A stretch of 64,000 nucleotides of DNA from a virus: the IMG/VR virus record IMGVR_UViG_3300029037_000169. The stretch is one strand, 5' to 3'. The notes beneath the pieces were generated by a model that did no database searches, was not told the DNA's origin, and saw only the letters and a program-made list of their open reading frames with translations. Positions 880 through 58,413 of the stretch are shown here, piece after piece (position 1 is the first letter of the stretch; the number at the start of each line of letters is the position of its first letter). A program made the position numbers and the translations under genes.

Positions 880-1038
880 CCATAACTTATACTATCATAC
901 AGTATCAAACAATATCATATGCGCTCATGTTCAATACATTCGTGTGTTTTTAAACAGTCAACAAATATCATGTAATATCATATGATGTCATGTTTTTTGC
1001 GTGTAAATTCGCGTAGTTACACGCAACACGTTTTTATC

Positions 1039-2319
1039 ATGGAAATAAAGAGGAGCATAACATTCGAGATAGAGAAAAGAAGGAAGGAGGGGGAATTGAT
1101 TACCAAGAACGTCCCCATCAGGTGCGTGGTGACATTCAACCGGAACAGGATCACGCTCTCCACGGGGCACAGGATAGACGCTAATAAGTTCATCCCGGAG
1201 AAAGGTATCGTCAAGAACGGATGCTTCAACAAGGCCGGGGAAAGCTCGTCCGAGATAAATTCCGATCTTGACGATATACGTGCCACATTGCAAAATATAT
1301 TCCGCCAATACGAGAGAGAGGGCGAGATGCCTAGATCCAACGATATCAAGGAAAAGTTCAAGGTTGCGACAGGCCGGGCGAAGGAGGAAGAGAGGAAGCC
1401 GGTATCCCTGTTCGATATCTACAAGGAGTTTATCGATACGGTAGGGAGGCAGAACGCATGGACGAAGACATCGCACTACAAACATAACTCGATCATGCAC
1501 CTTCTGGAGGAGTTCAATCCACTGATCAAGTTCGATGACCTGTCGGAGGATACCTTGCAAGACTTCGTAGAGTTCTTAAGGGAATACAAAGGTATAAGGA
1601 ATACCACGTTGAACAAGTACCTGCACTTTATAAAGCAATTCCTTTTATGGGCCGACGACAAGGGATACAACACGAGAAAGGACTATCGAAGGTTCAGCCC
1701 AAGGCTTAAAGGGGCGAACTTCGATCTGAAGAAAGTCATATACTTGACATGGGAGGAACTGATGCGTATATATAATATGTATATAAAGGAAGGGACGTTA
1801 TCCACCGTCCGTGACGTTTTCTGCTTCTGCTGCTTCACCGGCCTCCGTTACTCCGACGTATATAACTTAAGGAAGACAGATATCATTAACGGGAAGATTG
1901 ACATCGTGACACAGAAGGACAGCGACAACATACAGATCGAGTTGAACAAGTACAGCAAATCAATACTTGATAAATACGAAGACATCAAGCTCAAGAACGG
2001 GAAGGCGCTGCCGGTCTTGTCCAATCAGAAATACAACATGCATCTAAAGGATCTCGGCAAGATGGCGGAGCTGGACTCCGAGATAACCGAGGTATGGTAC
2101 GAGGGCAACAAGCGAATACAGCAGACATTTCATAAATGGGAACGGCTTACTACCCATGTCGCCAGAAAGACATTCGTCGTCAACGCCCTTATGCTAGGCA
2201 TCCCCCCTCAAGTTATCATGAGATGGACAGGGCACAACGACCTCAAGGCCATGAAACCTTACACTCATATAGTGGATAAGCTGAAGGAGGACGAGATGAG
2301 CAAGTTCGATAAGATATAA
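1039..2319 (+). CDS. int: tyrosine-type site-specific integrase (ORF opens at 982; probable start 1039 MEIKRS)
   Basis: C-terminal catalytic signature HVARKTF...RWTGHNDLKAMKPYTHI (R..H..R..Y); position adjacent to attL. Confidence 0.85.
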   Translation: MEIKRSITFEIEKRRKEGELITKNVPIRCVVTFNRNRITLSTGHRIDANKFIPEKGIVKNGCFNKAGESSSEINSDLDDIRATLQNIFRQYEREGEMPRSNDIKEKFKVATGRAKEEERKPVSLFDIYKEFIDTVGRQNAWTKTSHYKHNSIMHLLEEFNPLIKFDDLSEDTLQDFVEFLREYKGIRNTTLNKYLHFIKQFLLWADDKGYNTRKDYRRFSPRLKGANFDLKKVIYLTWEELMRIYNMYIKEGTLSTVRDVFCFCCFTGLRYSDVYNLRKTDIINGKIDIVTQKDSDNIQIELNKYSKSILDKYEDIKLKNGKALPVLSNQKYNMHLKDLGKMAELDSEITEVWYEGNKRIQQTFHKWERLTTHVARKTFVVNALMLGIPPQVIMRWTGHNDLKAMKPYTHIVDKLKEDEMSKFDKI

Positions 2320-2968: not shown

Positions 2969-3010
2969 ATAATAATAAAAGCTGAGCTACCGGCGTGACG
3001 GGCAATTAAT

Positions 3011-15936: not shown

Positions 15937-16828
15937 TATGGATAAAGGATTTATCATGTTATCCCGTAAATTATTTTCTCACAGAATATGGAAAGCATCC
16001 CGGACTTTTAGCGAGTGCGAAGCGTGGATAGACTTAATACAGTCAGCACGATTTGAGGCAACGCAGCTTAAGGCTAGTATCGGAGGTAGAGAAATAACAT
16101 ACGGAAGAGGACAATATCCAGCATCCATAAGTTTTCTTTCCAAAAAATGGAAATGGGACTCAGAGAAAAAGGTCCGAAATTTCTTGGACATGCTTAAAAG
16201 GGACGGAATGATAACAACAGACGCATCCCAAGGCATGAATGTGATAACTCTATGCAATTATGATTTATACAACCCTATAAATATAGACAAGGGCGAGGAT
16301 AAGGGCAAGGGTAATGGCATAGACATAGAACAAGAAATCAAGGACTTAAAGCTTTCTTTGGGCGAGCTAAGGGCAAGCCTAGGGGCAAGTGACGAAAATA
16401 AAGGGCAAGGTAAGGGCAAGAATAATAATAAAGATAATAATAATATACCCCCTACCCCCAAATCGGGAGGTGCCGTCACTTCCGTTCCGGACACGGGCGA
16501 TAACCCTGAGACAGAAAAGGAGAAAACATGGAAAGATGATTTCAGCATCTATTTGGATTTAGTCCGTAGCGCATATAAGAGCATATGCGACGATCCAAAG
16601 ATCATGGAGACTCAACAATCCTATTATCCCGGCGTAAACATAAAACTATCCCTAGAGAAGGCTTGCACAAATTTCTGGGCAACAGACGCAGGATGGAAGC
16701 ACAAGAAAAAAAGCAGGGCCAAGGAGATTGACATGAGAATGACATTGATTAACGCAATAGATAAAAACAAGGTTTATTATGGCAAGAACGAACACCGCAC
16801 AGATCTCACATACATCGTCCCCGATTGA
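15923..16828 (+). CDS. putative replication initiation / helicase-loading protein
   Basis: Sits immediately upstream of and overlapping dnaB; low-complexity K/G/N linker. Confidence 0.4.
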   Translation: MPTTDMDKGFIMLSRKLFSHRIWKASRTFSECEAWIDLIQSARFEATQLKASIGGREITYGRGQYPASISFLSKKWKWDSEKKVRNFLDMLKRDGMITTDASQGMNVITLCNYDLYNPINIDKGEDKGKGNGIDIEQEIKDLKLSLGELRASLGASDENKGQGKGKNNNKDNNNIPPTPKSGGAVTSVPDTGDNPETEKEKTWKDDFSIYLDLVRSAYKSICDDPKIMETQQSYYPGVNIKLSLEKACTNFWATDAGWKHKKKSRAKEIDMRMTLINAIDKNKVYYGKNEHRTDLTYIVPD

Positions 16829-19187
16829 CGGCAGGCTGCCTCCCCAAGCCAAGGAGATCGAGCAGATAATACTCGGGGCTTGCCTCATAGAGAGCGACGC
16901 TTTCGAGAAAATCGCCTCGGAGCTATCGGAGGTCGATTTCTACGACAAGAGGAACCAATCGGTATTCAAGGCCATATCCGGGCTATACAAGGAGAGAAAG
17001 CCCATAGACATGATGACGGTCACGCAAGCGATGCTGTCATCCGGGGAGCTTGAGAGTATTGGGGGGCCGATATACATAGCTTCCCTTACCTCCAAGATCG
17101 GGTCTTCGGCCCATATACAGGATCATGCCATGATCGTCAAGGAGCGGTCCATACAGAGGAAGGGGCTGGCTATCGCCAACGACCTTGAGAACGCCATCTA
17201 TTCCAACGAGGATATAGGGGACGTTCTTCACAAGGCCATAAACGGCTCAGAGACCCTCATGGAGGAACTTATCGGCAAGTCTAATGGCGAGCATATATCC
17301 AAGGCCCTTAAAGGCTCCATGGACGGTTTATACAAGCGTGTGGAGATGGCGAGGAAAAACATCCGATCCGGTGTTGACACGGGTCTTCACGACCTGAACA
17401 AGATCACGAACGGATGGCAGCCGGGAAACTTGGTGATAATAGCGGCTAGGCCCTCCATGGGAAAGGCGCTAAGGATGGATGCCAAGGTCTTGACACCTTC
17501 CGGATGGAAACTGAACAAGGATCTGGCGATAGGCGACCAAGTTTGCTCCGTAGACGGGACGGAATCACGTGTGACCGGCATATTCCCGCAAGGGTATGTC
17601 AAGACATACATGGTCGAGTTCTCGGACGGTCGCAAGATCGAATGCTGCGGAAGTCACCTATGGAGCGTAATATCTTCCAAGTTCAATTCCAAGGCCGAAA
17701 GGGTAGTATCTACCTTGGAGCTTATGGACTTGATAAGCAAGGAAAGATATTCCGGCAGAATAAGCATTCCTCGTTTCTCCGGGATATTCGGGGACAGGAA
17801 AGATTTCGTGATCCCACCATATCTCATGGGAGTCTTGTTAGGGGATGGGATCTTGGGCAAAGGGGTTAGCTGGTGCAAGCCAGATAAGTTTATCGCAGAC
17901 AAGATCCGAGGTATGGTTGACTACGATGTTATCGCCTCAGATGATCGATACCTAATAACCAACACGGAGAACAGGAAGGCCAATAAGTACTTGGCAGAGT
18001 TGAAGAACCTAGGATTGCTCAACGCCCATTCTTACGAGAAGTTCATTCCGGACATGTACATTGACACATGTAGGGATCAAAGAGTAGAACTGTTGAACGG
18101 TCTTCTTGACACTGATGGGGATATAGACAAGAATGGGGCTATATGTTACAACACCACGAGTGTCAAATTGGCGAGAGGCGTACAAACGCTTTGCTGGTCT
18201 TTGGGATATAAATGTTCCTTGAGAGAAAGACGCTCATTCCTTTATGGCGAGCGGAAAAGGAACAGTTTCAGGCTCGTGATCGTAGCGGACAACCCTAGGG
18301 AATGCTTCACGCTCCCAAGGAAATTCGACAGGGTGAGGATGGACCGGAGAAACAAGCCTTTGACCGTGATGTCCGTGACACCGACCAACCGCAGGGTTGA
18401 ATGCCAGTGCATATCGGTATCGCATGAGAAGGCCTTGTACATAACGGATGATTACATAGTCACCCACAATACCGCCGTGATGCTTCACTTGGCCAAATCG
18501 GCGGCAAAATCCAACACGCCCGTGGCTATATTCTCGCTTGAAATGTCCGACATAAGCTTGGCCAACAGGTTGATCCTATCCGAGTGCGACGTAGATCCGG
18601 AAAGGTTCAAGTCCGGGTATATGACAAACGAGGAGATCAAAAAGGTAGAGACGGCAGTCAACGAGCTTTGGAGGCTCCCGATCTATGTCGATGACAACCC
18701 GTGCGTTACGATGGACTACATCCGCTCACGATGCAAGATACTGAAGAAGCAAGGCAAGTGCGGGATCATCATGGCCGACTATCTCCAATTGGCGGAGAGC
18801 GGGGAACGGGAAGGAAACCGTGAGCGGGAGGTAGCCAAGATGTCAAGGACCGCCAAGATCACGGCGAAGGAGTTAAAGGTTCCCTTCTTGCTCTTATCCC
18901 AATTGAACAGGGGAAACGAGGCCAGACCGGACAAGAAACCCCTCCTATCAGATCTTAGGGAATCCGGGGCTATCGAACAAGACGCTGATATCGTAATGTT
19001 CATCCATAGGCCGGAGTATTACAAGATCGAGGTAAAGGACAAGAACGGGAACGTCGAACGCAACTATGGGGAGTTGATCGTGGCCAAAAATAGAGATGGG
19101 GCTACTGGATTAGTAAAATTCAAGCATAATGACGGTATGACCAAGTTCTACGATTACGGGAGTTATGACAAGGACATGCCATTTTAA
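16779..19187 (+). CDS. dnaB: replicative DNA helicase DnaB containing a LAGLIDADG-type intein in the P-loop
   Basis: DnaB N-domain; Walker A split ARPSMGK|[ALRMDAKVLTP...YIVTHN]|TAVMLHLA; LLGDGILGKG and LLDTDGDIDKNG endonuclease motifs; RecA-like C-terminal domain. Confidence 0.85.
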   Translation: MARTNTAQISHTSSPIDGRLPPQAKEIEQIILGACLIESDAFEKIASELSEVDFYDKRNQSVFKAISGLYKERKPIDMMTVTQAMLSSGELESIGGPIYIASLTSKIGSSAHIQDHAMIVKERSIQRKGLAIANDLENAIYSNEDIGDVLHKAINGSETLMEELIGKSNGEHISKALKGSMDGLYKRVEMARKNIRSGVDTGLHDLNKITNGWQPGNLVIIAARPSMGKALRMDAKVLTPSGWKLNKDLAIGDQVCSVDGTESRVTGIFPQGYVKTYMVEFSDGRKIECCGSHLWSVISSKFNSKAERVVSTLELMDLISKERYSGRISIPRFSGIFGDRKDFVIPPYLMGVLLGDGILGKGVSWCKPDKFIADKIRGMVDYDVIASDDRYLITNTENRKANKYLAELKNLGLLNAHSYEKFIPDMYIDTCRDQRVELLNGLLDTDGDIDKNGAICYNTTSVKLARGVQTLCWSLGYKCSLRERRSFLYGERKRNSFRLVIVADNPRECFTLPRKFDRVRMDRRNKPLTVMSVTPTNRRVECQCISVSHEKALYITDDYIVTHNTAVMLHLAKSAAKSNTPVAIFSLEMSDISLANRLILSECDVDPERFKSGYMTNEEIKKVETAVNELWRLPIYVDDNPCVTMDYIRSRCKILKKQGKCGIIMADYLQLAESGEREGNREREVAKMSRTAKITAKELKVPFLLLSQLNRGNEARPDKKPLLSDLRESGAIEQDADIVMFIHRPEYYKIEVKDKNGNVERNYGELIVAKNRDGATGLVKFKHNDGMTKFYDYGSYDKDMPF

Positions 19188-26173: not shown

Positions 26174-27148
26174 TTATCCCCATCCGTTGCCGAAGTTTCC
26201 CCAGTTACCGAGACCTAGGCCTAATCCGTACTGGGCGGCCACGCAAGTGGGTATGCCTACCACGGGGGAGTAAGGAACCTTTGCCACCTCCGGCTGGTTA
26301 CACTCGATCTTGGCCAATCTTGAGCTCAAATCACCCAAGGCGTTACCTAGAGGGGCGGTCTGCGCCTGTAGAGTAGCGGCGAAATAGGCGTTCTGGTTGC
26401 TTTGGGAGATCTGTCCTTTCAAGGCTAGGTTCTCCGCCGTCAAGCGATCCATCTTGTCTTGTTGATACAAGTTCTTGAAATCACGAACCTCGTTGATGAT
26501 ATCACGGGTGTTCTGCAGACCTGAGTCACGGAGAGTCAACGTGTTGTTGTTCATCGTATTCACCAGCGTGTTTGTCTGGTTGCAGCTAGCCAATTGGTTC
26601 TCGTAGCCCATCTTAGTGATGTTGTTGTTAACCGTGCAGCAGCACTCGGCGATCTGGCTCAATAATTGATTGTTACCACTTTGGACGGCGTTAATGATTT
26701 GTTGGGAACTCATGCCTACTTGGTTACCCACGCTCTGGATCTGTCCTTGGATCTGGCAGATAGCGTTTTGTAATTGTTGGGTTGAGCAATTCAAGGAAGA
26801 TGACAATTGGCTGATAGCCGTTCCGTTTCCTTGGATAGCGTTCATCAACAATTCACGACCAGCGTCATTGTTCAATTGAGCCGGTAATCCGTTAGCCCCG
26901 TTGTTGCCGAAGCCGTTGCCACCCCAGCCTCCCCATACGAAGAACAGGAGGATGATCCAGATCCACCAGCAACCACCACCGCCCCAAGCGTCTTGATTGC
27001 CCTTATTGTTCATCAAAGCCGCTACCAAATTGGGGTCCAATGATTTTCCACCGCCACCCATCAAGCTCGGGAGAAAGGCCATGATGTCAAACTTACTTCC
27101 ACCGGAATTACCTCCTTCGGGAGTACCGATAAAATAATTTCTATCCAT
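26174..27148 (-). CDS. Gly/Gln/Asn-rich protein with central hydrophobic segment
   Basis: Low-complexity GGGG/GNGxGNNG runs. Confidence 0.4.
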   Translation of the reverse strand: MDRNYFIGTPEGGNSGGSKFDIMAFLPSLMGGGGKSLDPNLVAALMNNKGNQDAWGGGGCWWIWIILLFFVWGGWGGNGFGNNGANGLPAQLNNDAGRELLMNAIQGNGTAISQLSSSLNCSTQQLQNAICQIQGQIQSVGNQVGMSSQQIINAVQSGNNQLLSQIAECCCTVNNNITKMGYENQLASCNQTNTLVNTMNNNTLTLRDSGLQNTRDIINEVRDFKNLYQQDKMDRLTAENLALKGQISQSNQNAYFAATLQAQTAPLGNALGDLSSRLAKIECNQPEVAKVPYSPVVGIPTCVAAQYGLGLGLGNWGNFGNGWG

Positions 27149-27531
27149 TATCTTTAATTTTTGTCGTTAATCCGGCACCATTACCGGACACGACAAAAAT
27201 CATGAGAAGGGCTTTGCTAAATAAATATCTCCTTGCTAGCTTGTTGCGAGGTTGTTGCTAGTTCTTTGCGGAAGGGGATGAGACAAAAAAAGCGCCGCCA
27301 ATTTGTGTTGACGACGCTTTTACCTTTTAAGGGAGGCTTTATAATGATATGGAAAGGAGCTCTTCTCCTAATTTATGCAAGGCTGTTTCCAATACATGCA
27401 TTGTAGCGTGGTTGGACTAGATATATGTTTTTTTCTATCTGAGTATTTATCAAAACTATTCCTTTCTAGGAATTCATCATACTCCTTAGCTAGTTCATCT
27501 AAATTTTTCATACCTTCCTCTTTATATGATA

Positions 27532-28005
27532 TCACTTTAGTTTATCCTGCAATATTTTCTCAAATATCTTTTTATACTCCCGAGGAGTTTTCTTGCTTTG
27601 ATATAGCGTATAAATCAAATCCAAGTATTCTTTCTCAAACAAACTACATATAAAAGTCAAATCAGGCACATTCAATGATAAGCTATGCGTGGAGGTCTTT
27701 GTATAACCATAATCTGGAACGACCGTACTATCTTCAGGAAATCTGAAGCTTTGAGTAACTCCATTGCCGTCTTTGTATGTGCCTACATCCTTACTGGCAA
27801 GAAACACATAAGATTTAGGGTCATTAGATCCAGAAGGATTTTTCCCATGCACATAATCACTAACCCCAGACCTCTTTTTCGATGTAGTGTATGTGGCTAA
27901 CACACAATCTTGCCCGTCATTATGTAAAATGATCGCATATTTTGGTTTCGTGCATATATTTGACAGCTTAAACGTGCCATATAAAACGTTTCCGGGCTTA
28001 AACAT
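27532..28005 (-). CDS. MazF/PemK-like toxin candidate (CcdB/MazF fold)
   Basis: GNVLYGTF...KPKYAIILHND...VLATYTTSKK parallels MazF GDLIWVDF...RPAVVLS...CVPCTTQSK; 8-nt overlap with upstream Panacea gene. Confidence 0.4.
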   Translation of the reverse strand: MFKPGNVLYGTFKLSNICTKPKYAIILHNDGQDCVLATYTTSKKRSGVSDYVHGKNPSGSNDPKSYVFLASKDVGTYKDGNGVTQSFRFPEDSTVVPDYGYTKTSTHSLSLNVPDLTFICSLFEKEYLDLIYTLYQSKKTPREYKKIFEKILQDKLK

Positions 28006-28591
28006 TATCGCATGACTTTAATTTACTATTAATCATCATAATCTCCATGGCACCATTATAGTTCTCCAGTTTCTCAGGATCATCCGCTATTAGTCTCTTA
28101 AAGTCTAAGCTATAATCTGATACTTTATAATCATTATCGAAAATAATATTATGCTCTTTCTTGGTAATATCCCATAACGATCCCTTTTTATGGGTCAAAT
28201 TCACCAATTCACTAGGCTTTTTATTCCCATATTCTTTTATGACACGATCTATTATGTCCATTTCGTAGTCGCTAAATTTATCATCCGAGAATGACACCTT
28301 CGGCAAAACATAAAAATGATTATCTGATCCTGAACATTTCTCCGCCTTAACATAATCAGAGAACTCCATTCCCCCGCATTTTATATAATATGTATCTGGG
28401 GCTACAGGGCCATATTGCCACGCCTTATAATCAAGCCAAGTGACAGGAACGCCATCATCCTTAACAGCCTCTTCATCTATAAGATATAGAAGCTTAATAA
28501 GCTGAGTATGGTATATTGGAGATATCCTCTCCGACAAATATACCATAAGATTGCCTATTTTATCTTTATTGACTTTTATTCCTAAACACAT
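27998..28591 (-). CDS. Panacea-domain (DUF4065/SocA-like) antitoxin
   Basis: LIKLLYLIDEE...WQYGPV motifs characteristic of DUF4065. Confidence 0.6.
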   Translation of the reverse strand: MCLGIKVNKDKIGNLMVYLSERISPIYHTQLIKLLYLIDEEAVKDDGVPVTWLDYKAWQYGPVAPDTYYIKCGGMEFSDYVKAEKCSGSDNHFYVLPKVSFSDDKFSDYEMDIIDRVIKEYGNKKPSELVNLTHKKGSLWDITKKEHNIIFDNDYKVSDYSLDFKRLIADDPEKLENYNGAMEIMMINSKLKSCDNV

Positions 28592-28753
28592 TTCGATTTA
28601 AATAATTTCCTGTTCAATAAACAAAACCCCGATACGGATTGTTGCGCCGCCGAGGTTTCATTATTATCTTTCATGCCGCAAAGGTCGCATAAAATTTTGT
28701 TATATGAAAATTTTTTCATAGACAAATCACATGCCTTACAACATAACGCACCC

Positions 28754-29050
28754 TCAGACCGTACCGGATAGCTCCTCTTTCACGCTCTCCACCGTTCTTC
28801 TCAGATAGTAACTCCTCCTTATCCTGTCCGGGTACAGGTTTCGCATCCGGTTCACGGCTTGCCTCGTCATTCCCGTCAGATCGGATATGATATTATCGCT
28901 CAACTTGCGATCGGCCAGTATGGTTATAGCCACTCCCCTAGCGTCAACGTTCCTCTCCTTGTTGTTGCTAAACATCATTACCGGATCGGTCCCGCACTCC
29001 TTGCAGACTGCCTCTATCACTTTTTTGTAAAAAATTTCCACCTTATTCAT
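28754..29050 (-). CDS. DnaA C-terminal-domain-like HTH DNA-binding protein
   Basis: RNVDARGVAITILADRKLSDNIISDLTGMTRQAVNRMRN. Confidence 0.4.
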   Translation of the reverse strand: MNKVEIFYKKVIEAVCKECGTDPVMMFSNNKERNVDARGVAITILADRKLSDNIISDLTGMTRQAVNRMRNLYPDRIRRSYYLRRTVESVKEELSGTV

Positions 29051-29254
29051 AAACTTTTTATTTCGTGGTTTGTTTTACTATCAAAGCCGGGCACAAAAAA
29101 TGCACGGCAGAAGAAATAAAGAATCTCTCCCGTCGTGCAGCGATAATTAAAACAAACTTCCGATCCGTTTTAATTTGTGGGGAGATTCTTTCTTTATCTC
29201 CCCGCCAACTCGTCCTCACGGAGTCATTGGATAACACTATGTATCAATATTAAA

Positions 29255-29734
29255 TCACCCTCTCTTATTAATGATCCACCATAACATGGCCGCAATCATT
29301 CCTCCTACCAACAGATACCACCATACCCTAGGATGGATAAGCCTCGTTTCCTTATCCACGTTTATCGTTTCTCTCTCATCGGAGACGACCGTCTTGTTAT
29401 TCGTCCGTACCTCTGTCATATCAGATCCGGTCGAAACGATCTTCTCGCCGGATTCCTCTCGCTCCTTACCTATGGTTATATCTGAGGTCTTGACTGGATA
29501 CTGGTTCCCCACGCTGTCTGGAGAAGACCACTCCACGACCAAGATCCGGGCGCTCAATCTCTCGTTAGATAATATCCGCTCTATGGCCGAAAGGCTGTCT
29601 TTTTTAAAGATACTATCCGATAGACTGACACTTGCAGTGGTATGCCTTTCCGTATCCGTGGATTTCTTGGAGGTTCCACAGGCACAGAAAAGGCATAACA
29701 ATATGACGTACCATATTCTCATAGCAAGTTCCAC
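29255..29734 (-). CDS. putative unimolecular spanin (N-terminal lipoprotein signal + C-terminal TM)
   Basis: ILLCLFCACG signal/lipobox region; C-terminal WWYLLVGGMIAAMLWWII TM; last gene of lysis cluster. Confidence 0.45.
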   Translation of the reverse strand: MELAMRIWYVILLCLFCACGTSKKSTDTERHTTASVSLSDSIFKKDSLSAIERILSNERLSARILVVEWSSPDSVGNQYPVKTSDITIGKEREESGEKIVSTGSDMTEVRTNNKTVVSDERETINVDKETRLIHPRVWWYLLVGGMIAAMLWWIINKRG

Positions 29735-30129
29735 CCAGCTATAACGTCCGACATTTCGGCCTCCCTACCGTTCTCGACCCGACTCATACCAGCGACAATA
29801 CGGATCATCTGCTCACGATCGTTGATATTTACAGGATCGTCAGCCGGTATCCCGGCGTAATCGGACACGGCCTTAATGTAAGCGTCCGTATCGTTCTCGT
29901 TTTCCGGTGCCCAGCGACCGATCATCTTGCGGATCGTGTCCAAATTATAGTTGTTATAGTAGTTACGCAAGATCCGGAATATGGCACGGTAGCCATACGC
30001 CATCGTCTCAAACTGTTTGAACGACTTGTCCTTGCTCGGACGTATCTCACCTTGGAACAAGTCTCCGTTGATCCGGATGTTTCCCGGGTTGTTGTTCCGA
30101 TACCCACGAGGTAAATTATTTTTCCCCAT
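29719..30129 (-). CDS. putative endolysin / cell-wall hydrolase (family not recognised)
   Basis: Sits between holin-like and spanin-like genes with overlaps; RGYRNNNPGNIR motif. Confidence 0.35.
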   Translation of the reverse strand: MGKNNLPRGYRNNNPGNIRINGDLFQGEIRPSKDKSFKQFETMAYGYRAIFRILRNYYNNYNLDTIRKMIGRWAPENENDTDAYIKAVSDYAGIPADDPVNINDREQMIRIVAGMSRVENGREAEMSDVIAGWNLL

Positions 30130-30132
30130 ATT

Positions 30133-30609
30133 TTACTCTCCTTTCTTCTTTTTATTCATGGCATTGGATAAAGCGTTTGTCAAAGCGTCCTCCAAAACCT
30201 TTTGCGTTACAACCTTACCGATCATGTCGGCTGTCTTACTCGCCTGCCTCCTTTGTTTGGCGTCAGCCTTCTCCCAGATAGACCGAACCTCCGTTATCAA
30301 GATAAATACGGTCACTATCGAGGATACGACCGGGACATTGGTCAAGAAAGGCAGATGGATAAATTCCCAGAACCGGCACACGTAGCAAACCGAGTCTATC
30401 CCGCACGCTATACATACGCTACCAGCGTAAAGTATGAACTTACTGACCGTCCTACGCATGCCATACGAATTACGCTCCTCGCCCCTCAATTTAGCCTTGT
30501 AATAACCCGAGGCGAAATCCCACCCCATCGCCACCATAACGATGAACATCTCAAACACGACTACAGTCAGTAGCTCCCTCATACTGCAAATCATTTTAAA
30601 AAATTCCAT
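30133..30609 (-). CDS. holin-like protein (3 TM + charged C-terminus)
   Basis: Three hydrophobic helices then K/R/D-rich tail. Confidence 0.5.
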   Translation of the reverse strand: MEFFKMICSMRELLTVVVFEMFIVMVAMGWDFASGYYKAKLRGEERNSYGMRRTVSKFILYAGSVCIACGIDSVCYVCRFWEFIHLPFLTNVPVVSSIVTVFILITEVRSIWEKADAKQRRQASKTADMIGKVVTQKVLEDALTNALSNAMNKKKKGE

Positions 30610-30634: not shown

Positions 30635-31027
30635 TTATAAAACCACTATGCTCTCCTCCTCTCTCGCCGCCTCCCACTCGGCGAAATCGCTATCCACACG
30701 GTCTTTCAACGCCTTCCTCTCGTTAAGGAACGTCTTATAAGACTCCACGTATGACAAGTCCAATATGCCTAGCTGGGCGGCGTTGTAGTCGTTCAGCTTC
30801 TTTTGCTCCACGTCCTTGTCCCATAGGGCGTTGATACAGGCCTCCAATATCTTGTTGGCAGTTAACGTGGCCCATATCCTGACCTCGTTGTAACTATAGG
30901 AGATCACGGGGGCCATATCGTCACCCATCTCCCTTGTCTCCTCTCTAACGTCCCACCGGTACAGGTAGGAACCGTCACCGTCCCGCTCTATTTTAGGCGG
31001 CATTGTGTCGCTCCATGATCGCTTCAT
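30635..31027 (-). CDS. hypothetical protein downstream of RT
   Basis: ORF overlapping RT start. Confidence 0.4.
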   Translation of the reverse strand: MKRSWSDTMPPKIERDGDGSYLYRWDVREETREMGDDMAPVISYSYNEVRIWATLTANKILEACINALWDKDVEQKKLNDYNAAQLGILDLSYVESYKTFLNERKALKDRVDSDFAEWEAAREEESIVVL

Positions 31028-32054
31028 AAAACTCTGGTTTTAAAATTTTCTTAGCTAAATGCTTGCTATCGCTATCATATATCCAGCCCAGCCAACCGGC
31101 TAGACCTGCCTTGTATTCCGTTAAGGATATATTCGGGACTTTATTCAATCTAGCCGCCGCACGACATAGATTTTGCTTAGTCCTCTTCCTTATCCGTATA
31201 TGCTCCTTATAGAAAACGAACCCCACGAAATCTATACCACGGCCGCTTTTATCCGATCTTCTCTCAGCGATCTTAAATATCTGGTAATTCCCTTTCAGCT
31301 CCAACTTCAACACGGTCAACCTATCGATAAGCCACGGAAGCAATACGTTTCTCAAGAAACACTTATCATGATGGAAAAAAGTCATGTCATCCGCATATCT
31401 GATATAATGCTTTATATCTATAATCTCCTTTATCTCGTGATCCAGATAGGCGAGATAAAGATTCGCAAGATATTGGCTAAGATAATTCCCGATCGGAACG
31501 CCGGGAGCGGAATCGATGATCTCATCCAACAACATAAGCAAGCGATCGTCCTTGATCTTCTTCCGAGCTATGCCTTTCAACACTTCATGGTCTATTGACG
31601 GATAGAATTTGCGGATATCAACCTTGAGGCAATAGGCGGATTCACGATCGGACAAAGCCCGTCTTGTCCTTTTATACGCCTCCGTTATCCCTCTTCCCTT
31701 GATACATGATGTCGTGTCAGAAGTGAATATGGAAACCCATATAGGTTCCATGACGTTCATTATAGCATGATGCAATATCCTGTCCGGGTAATAAGGAAGC
31801 TTGAATATGACCCTTTCTTTAGGCTCATAGATGATATCAGTCCGGTACTTGGAAGTCTTGAACGTGCCATCCTGCAAAGACTTTAGCAAACGGCTGAGAT
31901 TACCTTCTTTGTCCTTGTCAAACAACCTTATGCCGTAGGAATCCTTCTTCCCCCTCCGAGCCTTGATGTCTGCCAGTATCAAGTTATCCATATTCGCTAT
32001 CTTATCAAATAAATTTCCTATTCTCTTCATTGTCATCAATTTGCTTTTTATCAT
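30993..32054 (-). CDS. diversity-generating retroelement (DGR) reverse transcriptase
   Basis: YADD catalytic box (IRYADDMTFF); DGR-specific IGNYLSQ in place of QGxxxSP; ~350 aa; adjacent TR. Confidence 0.85.
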   Translation of the reverse strand: MIKSKLMTMKRIGNLFDKIANMDNLILADIKARRGKKDSYGIRLFDKDKEGNLSRLLKSLQDGTFKTSKYRTDIIYEPKERVIFKLPYYPDRILHHAIMNVMEPIWVSIFTSDTTSCIKGRGITEAYKRTRRALSDRESAYCLKVDIRKFYPSIDHEVLKGIARKKIKDDRLLMLLDEIIDSAPGVPIGNYLSQYLANLYLAYLDHEIKEIIDIKHYIRYADDMTFFHHDKCFLRNVLLPWLIDRLTVLKLELKGNYQIFKIAERRSDKSGRGIDFVGFVFYKEHIRIRKRTKQNLCRAAARLNKVPNISLTEYKAGLAGWLGWIYDSDSKHLAKKILKPEFYEAIMERHNAA

Positions 32055-32161: not shown

Positions 32162-32278
32162 TAAAAGTATAGGCGTGAACCGATGTTACGATTCGCATCG
32201 GAAGGCGCATTATTCGTATTCACGTTAGCGAGGCCTGCATTCGACCTGTTGTCCGCGTTACCGCCAACCAGCACCACC
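32162..32278 (-). repeat. DGR template repeat (TR)
   Basis: 117-bp homology to VR 32727..32843; every mismatch (~18) is at a TR plus-strand T, i.e. an A on the coding minus strand. Confidence 0.85.
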
Positions 32279-32302
32279 TAGGGATGATCGACCCTTATTC
32301 CG

Positions 32303-32697: not shown

Positions 32698-35600
32698 CTA
32701 CGCCGACGTTTTACGAAATTCGGGGAAAAAGCAAAGGCGCGAACCGAAGTGACGAAACGCAGCGGAAGGCGCATTATTCGTACCCACGTGAGCGAGGCCC
32801 GCAGCCGACCCGTCGTCCGCGCCACCGCCAACCAGCACCACCTGTAAGCGGTTGGCTTGCGTATAGGTGTAGTAATAGTCGCACCAGTAGGTAGAGCTAC
32901 TACCGCCGACCTCCGTAGCCACGATATCCCCATCTTCCCCAAGTAACATCTTCTTGGCATAACCATTGGTACGGCAGATGTTACCTTTCTTGTCATAACC
33001 TGTGTAAGATGTATCGCTGAAGTTTGACGGGTCATCGGTAGTCCATAGGATAGACAATCCGGAATCACCCGTGGTGACTTGTATGTTGGCCCCATCGGTG
33101 TATTTCCAGATATGGCCGAACGGGTTCTCTATGCCACGGTACCTGTTAGCCATCAACGTGGCGTGAGTACCACCGGAGGCGTTCTTCACGACATACGCCT
33201 TCTCTCCCGAGCCGTTCCCGAACTCGTTGGTATAGCCGCATGGGATAAGAGGATTGGCGTTGTTGAAGTTCGTCCAATCCGTCATTTGCGTCGGTCCCGG
33301 ACCTAGGCCGCCTTGGGCGAAACCGTTAGCGTCCTTCTGGGCGTTGAAAGGTTTCTGGCTGTCCAGCGTGGCGTACTCGACGGCGAATAACCAGAACAGG
33401 ATCTTGTGGGCGTTATAGGTGTACATTTCCCAGCCGCTGCCACGTTTCCTAGCGGCTTGCCGGAATTGGTCTCGGGTGAGGTTGGTGACGGGGCGGCCGA
33501 GTAGGGAACGGTAGGTATCATCCCATTCAGCGGTGTTGTCACCACCTCTAAAATTAGTTGAATTAGGATCACTTAATTTACTAGCTCCAGCCGCCGAACA
33601 TAATAAATTATCGGTTCTATACATTCTGGCTTCATATGTTGAGATATAGAACTTATCTACATGTTTATACCCAGGTAATGGAATTTCGGACAACATCTTC
33701 CTAAATTTAGTGCCATTAAAATACAATTTATACCAATGTTCAGGTATCTCTGTCATAACGGCATAATCCAAATAGCTTCCACCCCATGAAAGCTCATTAT
33801 CCAAATATTCTTTAACTCCACCATCTCTATCCAAAAGACACCTTCTCATCTTACTCTGCACCGGCAACTCCCGATGTAGTTGCATATTACCCACACGCTT
33901 CCCGTCCGGGCTTGACGATGCCATGTCCCACTCTACACCGTAGGCGTACCGCTCCTCTATATCCGGGATGTCCTCCCAAGCGGGGGTCCACTCGGTGGAG
34001 ATGTCACCATATTCAAGTTTAATCTTATGGATGGTGGAAGTTGATGTGCCAGTTTTAGGAGAACTAAATACAACCATATGTGTATTATCAGCTACTGCAT
34101 CTCCGATATTAGTAATCCATTTAAAAGTCTTACTGGCCTTCCCATTCACAAAGTCAGCCTTACTGAACTGAGCCATAGAACCTACTGCACCAGTAGAGTT
34201 ATATATAGTGAACATTTCCTTATCATCACCCAATTCTCCAAAAATAGTCAATGTTACTTGTGTTCCTTTAGATATCGGTTCAGTTAGCCAATAATCAGCG
34301 ATATTGTAATTCGAGTTACTCACCTCCTTCCCTGATCCCAGCAACAGGTTCCTGCCGTACACGGGCAGCTTGCGGTACTTGCCATCAGCCATCAGAGACT
34401 TATCCTTGTCCCCCTTGGTCTCCAGCGTTATCGACACGTCCGGATCTTCGTTTTGGGCCTTGTCCGGCGTTATGGTTATCTGGCCGTTAGACGGGGTGGA
34501 TGTGACAACGGGCTTTAACTTATTAACGTCCGTCCTTAGACCGGTGACCAGATTCCGGATATCCGTATCGTCGTAATTATCCAATCCATCCAACTTACCC
34601 TTATCTTCGTCAGTATAATTATTGTCCGTATGGACGTAATTAGCGTCCTTTACGATGTGATCGTCATTTGTTAATTGGGATGTCTTGGTTGGGATCAAAG
34701 CCGTTATCTCCGCACGCAAGTCATTGAGAAGACCGGTTAGGGTTTCCTTATCAGTAATACCCTGCAAAAAAAGCTCGATCTCATGGAAGGTATCTATAGC
34801 GTCGCTCGCTCCATCACCCAATAACGTGTCGATATCCGCCTTGATAGAGGCGATCTCACTCCTGACCCATTCATCATCATAGTTGGATAAGCCGTTGATC
34901 TTAGATAACAGCTCATCCGTAAGGTCGTTTGTGCTAAGTCCCTTCCCTTTGATCTTCTCGACAAACCTATCGTCAATCTGTCCGGACGTGTAATAACCTG
35001 ACAAGATACTCGTGACCTCCGCAAGTATTTGTTTTTTCAAATCCAGCAACACTCCGGCCATATCCTTATCCTCTGTCATACCGGACAAGAACTCCACCAC
35101 CTCCTGCCATCTGTTGATGATATTGTCCGCGTCCGGATCTCCCGTTATAAACGTGGACAGATCGGAAGCAACTTTCCTTATGGCCGTGTCAAGATCCCCC
35201 TCTACCTCCTTCGCCCTGCTGATCTCGGAGGTTAAAGCCTCTCTTAACGCCGTGTCATCGTAATTACTCAATCCGTCGAGCTTTTTCAAAAGAGCGTCCG
35301 TCAAGTTGTTATCCGTATGCGTGTAATCGGCATCGGTTACGATATTATCCGGGAGAATGGGTATCCCTAACTCCTCTAGGGACTTATCCCCGACCAACTC
35401 AACCCCGTTGATCCGTGGTTTATTGGTCATACTTTCATAATCTCCGGTCCCTACGGCAGGAACGGAGATATCTCCCGTTAGCCTTACCGTTGTCACCTTG
35501 ACGCTGCCACATCCCGTATCTCCACCTACGGAGCACGACCGTGGGATAAGACGGAACGCATCGCAAGCGTCTACGGTGTACATGCCCTCCTTCCCTTTGT

Positions 35601-35823
35601 TCTCGATAAGAGTCAGCGTATAGACACCGTTATAATCTTGGTCTTTGCCTAGGTAGGTGAATCGTATCACGTTATCCCGGAAGTGGAGGTCTTTTACCTC
35701 CATCTTCCTGTAACCATTGGTCATGAAGACGCTAATGTTCTTGCCATCCAAAGACTCGGGCTTACCGTCCCGGAAGATGGTCCATTCTATATTGATGTCG
35801 TTTCCTATGCGAATAGCTTCCAT
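32698..35823 (-). CDS. DGR target: tail fibre / receptor-binding protein with C-terminal variable region
   Basis: 1041 aa, fibre-like, VR at C-terminus, sits in tail-fibre cluster. Confidence 0.75.
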   Translation of the reverse strand: MEAIRIGNDINIEWTIFRDGKPESLDGKNISVFMTNGYRKMEVKDLHFRDNVIRFTYLGKDQDYNGVYTLTLIENKGKEGMYTVDACDAFRLIPRSCSVGGDTGCGSVKVTTVRLTGDISVPAVGTGDYESMTNKPRINGVELVGDKSLEELGIPILPDNIVTDADYTHTDNNLTDALLKKLDGLSNYDDTALREALTSEISRAKEVEGDLDTAIRKVASDLSTFITGDPDADNIINRWQEVVEFLSGMTEDKDMAGVLLDLKKQILAEVTSILSGYYTSGQIDDRFVEKIKGKGLSTNDLTDELLSKINGLSNYDDEWVRSEIASIKADIDTLLGDGASDAIDTFHEIELFLQGITDKETLTGLLNDLRAEITALIPTKTSQLTNDDHIVKDANYVHTDNNYTDEDKGKLDGLDNYDDTDIRNLVTGLRTDVNKLKPVVTSTPSNGQITITPDKAQNEDPDVSITLETKGDKDKSLMADGKYRKLPVYGRNLLLGSGKEVSNSNYNIADYWLTEPISKGTQVTLTIFGELGDDKEMFTIYNSTGAVGSMAQFSKADFVNGKASKTFKWITNIGDAVADNTHMVVFSSPKTGTSTSTIHKIKLEYGDISTEWTPAWEDIPDIEERYAYGVEWDMASSSPDGKRVGNMQLHRELPVQSKMRRCLLDRDGGVKEYLDNELSWGGSYLDYAVMTEIPEHWYKLYFNGTKFRKMLSEIPLPGYKHVDKFYISTYEARMYRTDNLLCSAAGASKLSDPNSTNFRGGDNTAEWDDTYRSLLGRPVTNLTRDQFRQAARKRGSGWEMYTYNAHKILFWLFAVEYATLDSQKPFNAQKDANGFAQGGLGPGPTQMTDWTNFNNANPLIPCGYTNEFGNGSGEKAYVVKNASGGTHATLMANRYRGIENPFGHIWKYTDGANIQVTTGDSGLSILWTTDDPSNFSDTSYTGYDKKGNICRTNGYAKKMLLGEDGDIVATEVGGSSSTYWCDYYYTYTQANRLQVVLVGGGADDGSAAGLAHVGTNNAPSAAFRHFGSRLCFFPEFRKTSA
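32727..32843 (-). repeat. DGR variable repeat (VR) at 3' end of target gene
   Basis: See TR; lies within last ~48 codons of 32698..35823. Confidence 0.85.
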
Positions 35824-54195: not shown

Positions 54196-54506
54196 AGCAA
54201 TCTAACCGTAGCCTTTTCATTTAACTCGTCCTTTATCCCATTCTTTTTGCAAAGGAAGGAATAGTAAGATTTAACACCATTGATATCCCAAGCCATAGAG
54301 AACCCGCTTTCATTGACAGACGTAGCTCTCAATAGTAAAGACGGAATAAACCTAGCGATCGCCACAGAAACTCTAACATGGCAATCCTTGCACATCTCAT
54401 CCTCTCCACTGACCTCAGCATTCAAACATATGTCCAAAAGGTCAGCTTCCGATAAATCGATACCGAAAGCTTGGAACCTTTGTCTTATGTAGTCATTTAC
54501 CGTCAT
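54192..54506 (-). CDS. head-tail adaptor candidate
   Basis: Position. Confidence 0.35.
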   Translation of the reverse strand: MTVNDYIRQRFQAFGIDLSEADLLDICLNAEVSGEDEMCKDCHVRVSVAIARFIPSLLLRATSVNESGFSMAWDINGVKSYYSFLCKKNGIKDELNEKATVRLL

Positions 54507-55585
54507 ACAACGTTCATTGTATCTAAGTCAATGATCACGATCTTATTTGGAGATGTATACTCCGGAATCCATTCCGCTCCGTATTCCATAAATCGACCCT
54601 CATCTGTACGGACATTAGAGATATACATACCTCCCTCTGAACGGGTATAGCTTTTGCCCGGCACAGGATCGGTTATTTCATACGGAGTATGCCATCTCAT
54701 CTTGCCTTGCTTCGGTGTCGTGAACAGTGATATGCGGTTATCCTTAAACACTTGCTTGAAGCCTCCATCCGGTAATTCCACCAAATCTTCATTAATAACG
54801 ATAGAAGGAAGCCCCAAACCTTGGAAGATAGTCGTGGCCATCTCGCTGGACATCAATCCAGAGGATAGTTGTACTTCTTTTTGGGCGAAGGATTGCTTAT
54901 AAAATTCACCGAAATCGGACGATCCTACGATAGAATTAATGAATGTCTTCCGTGACATCTCCATAGATAGGAAAACTCCAAATTTAGTTCTCAACTCCAC
55001 GACCTGATCCATAAGGTACTTTACGAAATGAGACTTATCCGAGGTTTGAGGAGTTATTTTATGAACAGGCAAAACCATGTCCAACAACTCTATTCCTTGA
55101 GGATTATCATCGACTTTTACGGAAGCCTTTCCGTCGGAGCGCAAATCACCATCCACGATATCCATGCGCTTATGAGGAGCAAGGAGAATCTGTCTCATAT
55201 CATCCACAATATAAGCGATAATATCGTCCAATACGGTTCGCTGATCTTGCGTTCTTGAGGTATTGAATTTGGTAATAAGCTCTTGTAGCATATCCAAACG
55301 ATCATTATCCATCTGATAACGATCTCCTAAATAAGCAACCTCCCCATACCCTGATCCAAGGGATTTACGCTCTCTCAATGGCTTATTTGAGTTCCGATCA
55401 ATAATAGAACCCGCAGTAACGCCTGTTACCGTACCTAGATAGGTCTTAAACACCCTAGATTTAGTCTCCTCAAAATCAAGATGTTTTTTCCAGAAAATAG
55501 TATCTAGGCGAAGCGCTTGCACCCTGTCAATGACCGCCTTTACAATATTAGGGTCATTCAATAATGTTTGAATTGTCAAATACAT
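54503..55585 (-). CDS. major capsid protein candidate (ORF opens to 55660; probable start MYLTIQ)
   Basis: ~360 aa, follows portal/scaffold-like genes. Confidence 0.5.
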   Translation of the reverse strand: MYLTIQTLLNDPNIVKAVIDRVQALRLDTIFWKKHLDFEETKSRVFKTYLGTVTGVTAGSIIDRNSNKPLRERKSLGSGYGEVAYLGDRYQMDNDRLDMLQELITKFNTSRTQDQRTVLDDIIAYIVDDMRQILLAPHKRMDIVDGDLRSDGKASVKVDDNPQGIELLDMVLPVHKITPQTSDKSHFVKYLMDQVVELRTKFGVFLSMEMSRKTFINSIVGSSDFGEFYKQSFAQKEVQLSSGLMSSEMATTIFQGLGLPSIVINEDLVELPDGGFKQVFKDNRISLFTTPKQGKMRWHTPYEITDPVPGKSYTRSEGGMYISNVRTDEGRFMEYGAEWIPEYTSPNKIVIIDLDTMNVV

Positions 55586-55598
55586 AAATCCTCCTTCC

Positions 55599-56189
55599 TT
55601 AATACGTGAACATAAATCTATCGCCCAATGACTCCTTGTCTTTATCCGAGATAGGGACAATCAGTCGGGTAGGCCTAATCTCATAGGCTTGTCCCACGGC
55701 TGTGATAGTGGCCCCATCCTCAACTTTCGTCCAAGCGTAATTCAGTGCCATAGCCATGGCCTTAGGAGTTTTTCCAGCAGCGGATGAAGCCTCAAACAAC
55801 ACCGCATCTTTTTTAGCCGCCAATGTGGGTGAGGCCGCCAATGTTATCGTGTCATATTCCAGTCCCGACTTATCAATAGCCTCTACGGTACCACCATTAG
55901 TTCCATTTCCCAAATGCATTCCTACGTAAGCCAATGAATTCTTATTTATTTTCAAAGAAGTTCCACCAGCTATAATTTCTTCGGCTACTGTCACGTTAAT
56001 GACAACTTTTGCCGTTCTAGTTTTAAAATCTAGTACCAAGGGGGTACAAGGAGGAATATTCTTAACCCCCGATAGGTTAGATATATCCAAATTAAAACCG
56101 CCAGAATATCGATATACCGTATCATAACGGCACATCTCCGGCATATTAGGCTCAATCGGATTTAAATCATACTTAACACCTGCCGACAT
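55599..56189 (-). CDS. capsid-associated protein (decoration or similar)
   Basis: Position between scaffold-like and capsid genes. Confidence 0.35.
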   Translation of the reverse strand: MSAGVKYDLNPIEPNMPEMCRYDTVYRYSGGFNLDISNLSGVKNIPPCTPLVLDFKTRTAKVVINVTVAEEIIAGGTSLKINKNSLAYVGMHLGNGTNGGTVEAIDKSGLEYDTITLAASPTLAAKKDAVLFEASSAAGKTPKAMAMALNYAWTKVEDGATITAVGQAYEIRPTRLIVPISDKDKESLGDRFMFTY

Positions 56190-56940: not shown

Positions 56941-58413
56941 TTAATGATCATCATCACCATCACCGCTATTCTCTTCCTCTATTTCTTTAAGTACCTCATC
57001 CACCCTTTCCGCATTACCGGCAAATAAAATACCTTCTCTCCTACTCCAGATCTTTCCGTTTATCGCATTAGTAGCCGTATAAACCCTCTCATCTATATCA
57101 TCGATCATATACGGAACCAGATCAACATCTATGTCTATTGTTTGTGACGCTTTCATAAATTGACTGGGATTGATATCTCCCATTGCTGATACTAAAAAAT
57201 TAACCCTTCTCTGGAAAAACTCCCCTATTATCTCCGCATGGTTCGAAACCGCCATATGAGCTCCCATAAAGATATATCTAAAAGCCTTTCCTGATACGGC
57301 ATTGCCTATACCTTTCAACTCTTGGGGAGAAATACGAGGTGTATTGGTCATATCATAGGCTCTATTAGTCAGTCCCTCAAGCTCTAGACGAACAGTGTCC
57401 GGGACTTGATTCCATGTTAAATATTGAGCGTTAGCCCCCGGTCCAGTAAGTTGAATCATACGATTCTTCCTCTTCCCAGAGAAGTTTTCTATGTCTCCGA
57501 ACAACATCAAGTAAGGGAAGAAATGATAGTCTATACAATCGGCGTAATTAGATAAAACCTTCTCTATTCTCACACGCAATGGCTTGATCTTATGGCAGTA
57601 ATTTTCAGAACGATAGCAATACATTACCGGAAGTTTTGAGAATAGATGTCTAAAGGATGATTCCCTCTTCTCTTGCCATGCATCACTATTCTCCCATTGA
57701 TATACATGAGTGGATGTTATCGTCTGGAAACATATTATCTCATTATCATCCAAATCCTTTTTTTTATACTCTCTTGAGAAAGCGACCAAATCGTTTGAAT
57801 CATCAAAAAATGGATATAATTTATCTCCTCTGAAAGGAGACCATATAACACTCCTCAATTTATAAGAAGGAAATACGTTCCCTGAAAAAACCATCTTGAT
57901 CTTATTCCTTAGCTTAGTCCAAAATGAATCGTCTTCCACGACATACCAATATTCCGCACATTCTTGTTCCGACAGCCAAGATCGCACCTCCCGTTTGTTT
58001 TGATACTTGATCTTGTTTTTCTTCAAGGTCTGCTGAATAGCCGCAAAAAGTGCCTTTTCCGCATCGTTAGAAGGGGCACAGTCCATTTTAGGCTCTATTC
58101 CTACGGTAAACGCCGTTTGAATATTTGTTATATCCTGCTCAAGAGGAATAGATATACGATTACAAGGCTCAGTATGTTTCTTGGCTGGAATTTCCATATA
58201 TTCACCGGTGTCGTGATTATAAGCTTTTCCCTCTTTCTCATCCACGATTTCTATATCCGGGTATTTCTCTTTATCCGTTATAATCTCATGCAGATCTGGA
58301 TTCCAGTCGGCCATATTCTCTCTATTGTCGGGGAGAGGGGTTCTTCTCCCTTTCTTTAAATACTCGATCTTCTGATCTATATCTTCTAACGCTAAAATCT
58401 CTTCAAGTGTCAT
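56941..58413 (-). CDS. portal protein candidate
   Basis: 490 aa immediately downstream of large terminase; acidic C-terminus. Confidence 0.55.
   Translation of the reverse strand: MTLEEILALEDIDQKIEYLKKGRRTPLPDNRENMADWNPDLHEIITDKEKYPDIEIVDEKEGKAYNHDTGEYMEIPAKKHTEPCNRISIPLEQDITNIQTAFTVGIEPKMDCAPSNDAEKALFAAIQQTLKKNKIKYQNKREVRSWLSEQECAEYWYVVEDDSFWTKLRNKIKMVFSGNVFPSYKLRSVIWSPFRGDKLYPFFDDSNDLVAFSREYKKKDLDDNEIICFQTITSTHVYQWENSDAWQEKRESSFRHLFSKLPVMYCYRSENYCHKIKPLRVRIEKVLSNYADCIDYHFFPYLMLFGDIENFSGKRKNRMIQLTGPGANAQYLTWNQVPDTVRLELEGLTNRAYDMTNTPRISPQELKGIGNAVSGKAFRYIFMGAHMAVSNHAEIIGEFFQRRVNFLVSAMGDINPSQFMKASQTIDIDVDLVPYMIDDIDERVYTATNAINGKIWSRREGILFAGNAERVDEVLKEIEEENSGDGDDDH

Follow-up and report, generated by a model that had tools for sequence, protein, structure and literature searches.

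The Panacea domain was defined as a hyperpromiscuous antitoxin domain by Kurata et al. 2022 (PMC8832971; PNAS 119:e2102212119), who validated two PanA pairs with toxins like EndoA, PemK and MazF, one from P. moraviensis and the other from B. ruminantium. Both of these MazF-like PanT toxins lack a CDD match and inhibit protein synthesis, and the P. moraviensis PanA and PanT form a complex (PMC8832971). Stable PanA:toxin complexes are known for five pairs, and mutagenesis backs direct neutralisation (PMC8832971, PMC10440598). According to Ernits et al. 2023, PanA neutralises its toxin via the Panacea core or via appended elements such as C-terminal helices, and their network has MazF/PemK among its most frequent toxin folds (PMC10440598). 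The same authors propose that Panacea may be a sensor and not merely a neutraliser (PMC10440598). Among the toxin clusters in Dataset S1 of Kurata et al., cluster T8 includes a pair of B. luti DSM 26991, PanA WP_073399940.1 and PanT WP_073399942.1, in the order A|T with a gap of 1 (PMC8832971). The T8 representative for HHpred, from P. bohemica, matches PemK/MazF at 99.66%, and the single T8 member that was tested, Flavobacterium xanthum WP_073354223.1, labelled 'MazF', was non-toxic in E. coli (PMC8832971).

Here I describe a phage-borne pair of this kind. The window, that is, the whole stretch of 64,000 nucleotides that was analysed (IMG/VR record IMGVR_UViG_3300029037_000169), is a temperate phage of the Bacteroides type. 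It has genes for an integrase (982..2319), a primase-helicase (16779..19187), a tail protein (32698..35823), a major head protein of the capsid (54503..55660), a portal (56941..58413) and a large terminase (58425..59690), together with lysis genes. The original prediction had placed two overlapping minus-strand ORFs downstream of the lysis genes, and both exist exactly so. The upstream ORF, panA (27998..28591, minus strand), encodes an antitoxin candidate of 197 aa, and the downstream ORF, panT (27532..28005, minus strand), encodes a toxin candidate of 157 aa. They overlap by 8 nt, as had been noted; the TAA stop codon of panA (27998-28000) lies within ATGTTTAA and the ATG of panT is at 28005, so that in the overlap sequence GATAATGTTTAAGCC the start codon of panT stands five bases ahead of the stop codon of panA. 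When the 1123-bp cassette containing the two genes was shuffled 500 times, the longest ORF averaged 57 aa and reached 141 aa at most, compared with the observed 197 aa. Since the shuffles give shorter ORFs and both proteins have numerous homologues besides, the ORFs exceed chance. Upstream of the pair, the gene at 30133..30609 encodes a holin (PF05105, E=4e-7), that at 29719..30129 is endolysin-like (phrog_873, E=1e-46) and that at 29255..29734 encodes a membrane protein.

The assignment of panA to the Panacea proteins had been based on the motifs LIKLLYLIDEE and WQYGPV, both of which are found in its translation. It was borne out by a Pfam search, in which residues 31-140 match PF13274 (SocA_Panacea) with E=3.6e-23 and 83.1 bits against a cut-off of 25.7. 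panA also matches the phage family phrog_1281 (E=1.3e-22). The protein consists of the Panacea (DUF4065/SocA-like) domain and a conserved C-terminal tail of about 55 residues, and an N-terminal HTH is absent. Its homologues are collinear with it from end to end, including the C-terminal tail (roughly residues 150-190). PADLOC models match neither panA nor panT.

The original prediction regarded panT as MazF/PemK-like from the motifs GNVLYGTF, KPKYAIILHND and ATYTTSKK, all of which are present in the translation. Scans against Pfam, PADLOC and PHROG gave no meaningful match for panT. A word-indexed search returned 23 relatives of 110-160 aa with 38-97% identity, 21 of them full-length (148-160 aa). 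A profile search of 1.84 billion representatives returned 170 relatives at E<=1e-3, 64 of which are at E<=1e-10; most are 140-170 aa in length and the remainder are mainly shorter fragments. The panT family is thus modest in size and fixed in architecture. In an alignment of 123 diverse members, none matches Pfam, the PemK_toxin profile (PF02452) included. A second word-indexed search, started from this alignment, yielded hardly any further relatives. Family profiles from this and a further alignment returned only chance-level matches among PDB sequences.

The structure was more informative. An AlphaFold2 model of panT, made from a 22-sequence alignment, has a pLDDT of 91.6 and a pTM of 0.86 and shows a core of ten strands, a pair of short helices and another pair of helices at the C-terminus. 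Its best structural matches are exclusively MazF, Kid, CcdB and CptN, and no unrelated fold scores above 5.7 in the structure comparison. Foldseek placed MazF-mt3 first (E=2.7e-3, probability 1.0), and in a viral structure library the phage proteins ranking first are PemK-like or named PemK/MazF. The model thus has the SH3-like barrel fold of the CcdB/MazF type. It had been stated beforehand that a structure prediction without a MazF/CcdB fold would speak against a MazF-like toxin; since such a fold was found, the call is supported.

Which residues of panT may be catalytic? Among the 123 members, conservation reaches 90% or more in just four columns, namely position 22, position 41, G54 and F89. 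A lysine is found at position 22 in 113 members and an arginine in the other 10 (123/123 K/R), and position 41 holds a threonine in 116 members and a serine in 6 (122/123 T/S). These two are the only universally conserved polar columns; the adjacent S42 is kept in 110/123 members. An Arg/Thr pair is essential for catalysis by MazF, R25/T48 in B. subtilis and R29/T52 in MazF-sth (PMC10893535). I aligned the panT family by hhalign with a profile of four sequences, E. coli MazF (identical to 3nfc_A), EndoA, Kid and S. aureus MazF. The result was not significant (probability 2.8%); in this alignment, K22 lies over R29 of MazF and T41 over T52. The earlier pairing of the motifs KYAIIL with RPAVVL and TYTTS with PCTTQ is returned by the same 2.8% alignment. 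In the panT model, K22 is within strand 2 and TTS directly follows strand 3, the same places relative to the strands as in MazF. The mapping of K22 and T41 onto the catalytic pair is to be read as putative, since it is based on a weak alignment and strand order and not on a superposition.

A C-terminal extension of about 50 aa had also been proposed for panT. A C-terminal addition does exist, but it amounts to about 20 residues (helix 142-155) and is not a single 50-residue block. As aligned by hhalign, residues 1-109 of MazF extend over residues 1-136 of panT, which has an insertion of about 20 residues at about 43-65. The extra length relative to MazF is made up of this insertion after TTS, smaller insertions and the one C-terminal helix. 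The H53-G54 motif, another conserved feature of panT beside K22 and T41-S42, sits in the insertion.

Is the pairing with Panacea conserved? A Panacea gene lies directly upstream of the panT homologue in all of the 25 loci that were fetched. Five are chromosomal islands of the Parabacteroides type that lie between purL and a capsule locus, and another five are phages in which the tape-measure gene is downstream of the pair. Seven GTDB genomes (Bacteroides luti, Parabacteroides, Paludibacter, Tannerellaceae and Bacteroidaceae), three other phage contigs and five loci of two distant branches make up the rest. In the 11 representative loci that were measured, the spacing of the two genes ranges from -13 to +9 nt. 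The PanA homologues are 35-60% identical to panA, and this identity tracks the divergence of the toxins. The pairing holds in chromosomes, in three different phage positions and even in the two distant branches, where toxin identity falls to about 22%. Thus, the locus shows the two-gene neighbourhood across differing genomes and the Panacea domain in the antitoxin that mark PanAT systems.

The third mark, homology to a catalogued PanT cluster, was found with B. luti. In the locus of this species, the Panacea ORF runs to 2999 and the ORF of the toxin begins at 3001, leaving a gap of 1 nt, and an exact-sequence look-up revealed that the toxin is WP_073399942.1. panT is 50% identical to this protein (tblastn E=2e-43), which is listed in cluster T8, and therefore belongs to an already catalogued family. 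The original prediction held the combination of Panacea with a MazF-fold protein to be unusual. This can no longer be maintained, because Kurata et al. validated such pairs and list the T8 homologue (PMC8832971). Rather, panA-panT is a phage-borne, newly found member of a catalogued PanAT cluster.

The pair is borne by an exchangeable cassette of 1123 bp (27528..28650, minus strand), which consists of panA, panT and a 59-nt leader. It was compared by blastn with Bacteroides phage BF1-TP2 (host B. fragilis) and with 80 sibling loci of IMG/VR, which had been retrieved by the neighbouring 98-aa DnaA_C-like protein (28754..29050) at 97-100% identity. Homology ends at 27527/27528 on one side and at 28650/28651 on the other. 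The flanks of BF1-TP2 are 81% (27184-27527) and 91% (28651-29226) identical to the window, and between them the place of the 1123-bp Panacea cassette is taken by a pair of 1320 bp, one gene of which is annotated as encoding an ATP-binding protein and the other a DUF4325 protein. Eight sibling loci have the same 1123-bp cassette at 99-100% identity, with the pair intact and its proteins 98.7-100% identical. The remaining siblings have alternative cassettes of 1074, 1128, 1185, 1320 or 1615 bp. The most frequent encodes a HATPase-like protein of 299 aa and a DUF4325/STAS-like protein of 119 aa (44 loci, plus 5 partial), followed by a pair of 422 aa and 71 aa without a family match (12 loci). Three other Panacea pairs occupy the site in 10/80 loci in all. 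A Panacea protein of 164 aa is followed by a hydrophobic protein of 166 aa, judged by eye to be probably a membrane protein, in 7 loci; one of 187 aa by a related membrane protein of 198 aa in 1 locus; and one of 181 aa by a 156-aa protein in 2 loci. The last locus is truncated. The 156-aa partner has a weak KNKYFIVL-type resemblance to the panT family (15 bits). PADLOC found no complete system among the hot-spot alleles.

The PanA proteins of different cassettes are 22-26% identical, one pair excepted (44%). Whole modules are thus exchanged, not toxins under a constant antitoxin. The GC content of all the hot-spot cassettes is 0.32-0.36. That of the panA-panT cassette is 0.358, compared with 0.436 in the window and 0.477 in the lysis genes, in agreement with the AT-rich region described earlier, and the surroundings form a compositional island with a GC of 0.33-0.38 over 27300-28800 versus 0.46-0.55 on either side. 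The reading of the pair as AT-rich phage cargo was strengthened by this island, by the temperate phage genes and by the swapping of the cassette for five others. The cassette is exchangeable cargo, for which the swaps among siblings are the strongest evidence. The swapping also suggests, indirectly, a role in conflict between phages or between phage and host.

Directly after panT comes a small ORF (27368..27535, minus strand), which was considered as a third gene of the module; it has 55 aa when read from a GTG and 47 aa when read from the ATG at 27511. It has no family match in Pfam, PADLOC or PHROG. It lies in a stretch conserved with BF1-TP2 (gp41), which carries a different cassette, and it is not present downstream of the module in the chromosomal and other phage contexts. 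Because it is shared with phages carrying other cassettes and is gone next to the module elsewhere, this flank-borne ORF was rejected as a part of the module.

How may the cassette be transcribed? The region upstream of panA (28592..28753) had been taken as an AT-rich promoter gap. It is indeed AT-rich (162 nt, GC 0.358), but a promoter motif was not found in it; the Bacteroides-type TAnnTTTG does not occur on its coding strand, and sigma-70-like matches are no commoner than in shuffles. A part of this gap, 103 nt in length (28651..28753, minus strand), is a conserved intergenic flank common to phages with different cassettes. It is 88-100% identical in nearly all sibling loci, with one weaker partial match and one locus without a match. 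No terminator was found between the DnaA_C-like gene and panA (from 29050 to 28591). Transcription of the cassette probably starts in 28651..28753 or enters from 28754..29050 by read-through. Between 29300 and 27000, the minus strand has a single strong terminator-like site, a hairpin at 27288..27321 with a 14-bp stem followed by a T run. It is probably the 3′ end of a transcript carrying panA, panT and the small ORF.

Taken as a whole, the exchangeable cargo that this temperate Bacteroidales phage carries is probably a PanAT-type toxin-antitoxin cassette acting through protein-protein contact (type II), with a predicted RNase activity, toxicity and anti-phage function. The overlapping panA and panT would be co-translated. 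panA would bind and neutralise panT via its Panacea core or its conserved C-terminal tail, whereas free panT would act as a MazF-fold endoribonuclease that cleaves RNA and arrests translation, with Lys/Arg22 and Thr/Ser41 serving as the catalytic Arg and Thr of MazF. In a lysogen or during infection, the cassette may serve as a device for superinfection exclusion, abortive infection or addiction, and panA-panT would be one allele among several that replace each other at a hot spot for cargo, downstream of the lysis genes.

Other explanations of the pair were weighed. It might not be a growth-arresting toxin-antitoxin system at all; panT could be a non-toxic regulator that binds RNA or DNA, or an anti-defence factor, with the Panacea protein as its partner or sensor. 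The sole T8 member examined so far was harmless to E. coli, no defence-system model of PADLOC matches, and a sensor role of Panacea has been proposed by Ernits et al. 2023 (PMC10440598). However, non-toxicity in a foreign host carries little weight as negative evidence, and the tight antitoxin-toxin pair, overlapping or abutting, is kept across very divergent members and unrelated contexts. The putative catalytic residues are conserved as well, and the same site harbours three other Panacea pairs, two of them with membrane-protein partners. I therefore regard this explanation as unlikely. It seems similarly improbable that panT is toxic through a target other than RNA, with Panacea still its antitoxin, as the same fold in CcdB acts on DNA gyrase. 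RNA cleavage is the most likely activity of panT, because the conserved K/R22 and T/S41 align with the essential Arg and Thr of MazF and the strand order agrees, as judged from the alignment and the model.

Another alternative concerns how panA would silence its partner. In Caulobacter, the antitoxin SocA serves ClpXP as the adaptor for the toxin SocB, and it is from SocA that the Panacea domain has its Pfam name. Thus, panA might be an adaptor that delivers panT to ClpXP for proteolysis. This is very improbable, given that panT is unrelated to SocB and that the antitoxin-first, overlapping arrangement is the architecture of type II systems. The stable complexes of five PanA:PanT pairs and the mutagenesis cited above also argue for direct neutralisation.

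What does the site add? Speculatively, and with more doubt than conviction, the region 27527-28651 may be a dedicated immunity-allele hot spot in a widespread lineage of gut Bacteroides phages. Recombination between the conserved flanks would exchange unrelated PanA:PanT modules and other two-gene cassettes there, each allele would endow the lysogen with its own spectrum of exclusion against rival phages, Panacea would be the common infection sensor, and a toxin of the T8 type would work in its native Bacteroidales host alone. The last point would explain why a relative is non-toxic in E. coli. In this speculation, two of the PanA:PanT modules of the hot spot have MazF-like toxins and two have membrane toxins.

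As a toxin-antitoxin pair, panA-panT adds little, Panacea pairs with MazF-fold toxins being published and the panT family already catalogued. What is new is that an AT-rich cassette of 1123 bp occupies a hot spot between conserved flanks and that this site is multi-allelic in 80 siblings. The value is mainly in this setting, as near-identical phages hold four Panacea modules and two other cassettes at one site. With this series of natural alleles, one could test directly how Panacea modules serve a phage or a lysogen, be it by exclusion, addiction or sensing, and how PanA specificity tracks its toxin. The setting is gut Bacteroides, a system in which tests of phage-defence or toxin-antitoxin functions are very scarce. 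In addition, K/R22 and T/S41, conserved family-wide, offer precise mutants for asking whether sequence-orphan MazF-fold proteins are RNases.

Compared with known systems, the T8 pair of B. luti is like that of the window; a Panacea protein without an N-terminal domain is followed by the toxin, abutting or overlapping, and the PanA proteins are 58% identical, as against 50% for the toxins. The window copy is on a temperate phage at an exchangeable hot spot, whereas the B. luti copy is chromosomal and adjoins an MzaE-like defence gene. T8 is a computational cluster, and the F. xanthum member is tied to panT through cluster membership. The P. moraviensis (cluster T6) and B. ruminantium pairs are also like that of the window in that a Panacea antitoxin accompanies a toxin without a CDD or Pfam match and with a predicted EndoA/PemK/MazF fold. 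These two toxins belong to other clusters and other phyla than the window pair, and they are likened here by description. They are toxic, translation-inhibiting and neutralised by the cognate PanA, while the activity of the window pair is only predicted.

The canonical MazEF, PemIK and Kis-Kid systems have an antitoxin of the MazE/PemI type, and the window has a Panacea protein instead. panT is about 45 residues longer than canonical MazF, PemK or Kid, with the insertion after TTS and the extra C-terminal helix, and, unlike canonical MazF/PemK, it has no match to Pfam PemK_toxin. The beta1-beta2 loop, which closes over RNA in MazF, is much shorter in panT (residues 14-18). A type III system (ToxN/AbiQ/CptN) was also considered. 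Tandem repeats of an RNA antitoxin were sought in 27100..29300, which shows only three chance-level pairs of 12-13 nt. The type III reading was rejected because such repeats are absent; the upstream space is occupied by the Panacea ORF. In comparison with SocAB (type VI), SocA shares the Panacea domain with panA, while panT has a MazF fold and not that of SocB.

As for the site, the anti-phage hot spots of temperate phages and satellites, those of P2/P4 for example, have a fixed position, low GC and mutually exclusive small cassettes. The site in the window is like them, with a fixed position between conserved genes, low GC and alternative small cassettes in close relatives. It differs from them in that the phages are of the Bacteroides type and that four of the six alleles are Panacea pairs.

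The exchangeable cassette site that holds panA and panT, a Panacea antitoxin candidate and a MazF-fold toxin candidate, was found to carry three further Panacea pairs in sibling phages (comparison loci L035, 4485..5476; L094, 4389..5518; L068, 2950..3968; and L070). In two of the three, the partner is a hydrophobic protein, of 166 and 198 aa, which is probably membrane-spanning. In the third, the partner is 156 aa long and contains a KNKYFIVL motif; it may be another MazF-like toxin. In L070, the genes for Panacea and the 156-aa partner lie alongside a leftover DUF4325 gene, and this arrangement looks like a recombination intermediate.

Immediately upstream of the variable site lies a minus-strand gene (28754..29050) for a 98-aa protein with a weak similarity to HTH or DnaA C-terminal domains (E about 0.01-0.02). 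The protein is 97-100% identical across 80 IMG/VR phage contigs; it could be a regulator of the cargo locus, or its gene could be a promoter source. On the other side, a small minus-strand ORF without a family match (27368..27535) overlaps the toxin stop codon by 4 nt, and beyond it, on the same strand, lies a strong hairpin resembling a terminator (27288..27321). Its counterpart is kept in the Bacteroides phage BF1-TP2 as gp41, while some hot-spot alleles have replaced this ORF, and downstream homology there begins only at flank position 162-207.

Chromosomal homologues of the pair were also assessed for their neighbours. In Bacteroides luti, the PanAT homologue faces a convergent gene (L012 3483..5858, minus strand) for a 791-aa protein matching the PADLOC model MzaE with E=8e-92. 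Thus, the chromosomal copy of B. luti adjoins a defence gene. In Parabacteroides-type chromosomes, a pair of the T8 type, the predicted PanAT cluster to which the B. luti homologue of panT belongs, sits with purL on one side and a UpxY/NusG-like capsule locus on the other. It is adjoined by a gene for an Xre-type HTH protein and by another Panacea pair, distinct from the first (region L001 4463..6180). This second pair, a 326-aa PanA with a 128-aa partner, is strain-variable and is missing from some Parabacteroides-type strains.

The profile of panT homologues also matched a 2380-aa protein, P0066, in 16 separate stretches, each confined to the TTSQ...HG segment at profile positions 33-73. Probably, P0066 is a repeat protein whose motif reflects chance or convergence.

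The window carries a complete diversity-generating retroelement. A minus-strand reverse transcriptase gene (30993..32054; PF00078, E=3e-13; PADLOC RT, E=7.5e-35) is accompanied by a 117-nt template repeat (32163..32279) and a variable repeat (32727..32843) at the 3′ end of a minus-strand gene for a 1041-aa tail protein (32698..35823). The two repeats differ at 18 positions; at every one of these the template has an A, which the variable copy replaces with G, C, or T.

What else occupies the hot spot? In 12 of the 80 sibling loci, it holds a pair of 422-aa and 71-aa proteins (L031 4486..5975), neither of which had a match in the Pfam and PADLOC scans; the 422-aa protein has the N-terminal sequence MTAIVGVLNKHAVAIAADSAITT. 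The most frequent allele, with 44 of the 80 sibling phages carrying it, combines a 299-aa HATPase-like protein with a 119-aa DUF4325/STAS-like protein (L027 4451..5706; also gp43/gp42 of BF1-TP2, L011 5381..6624). The sole PADLOC match of this pair was a weak one that involves part of DrmA (E=2e-8). Its layout recalls that of an anti-sigma kinase and its antagonist.
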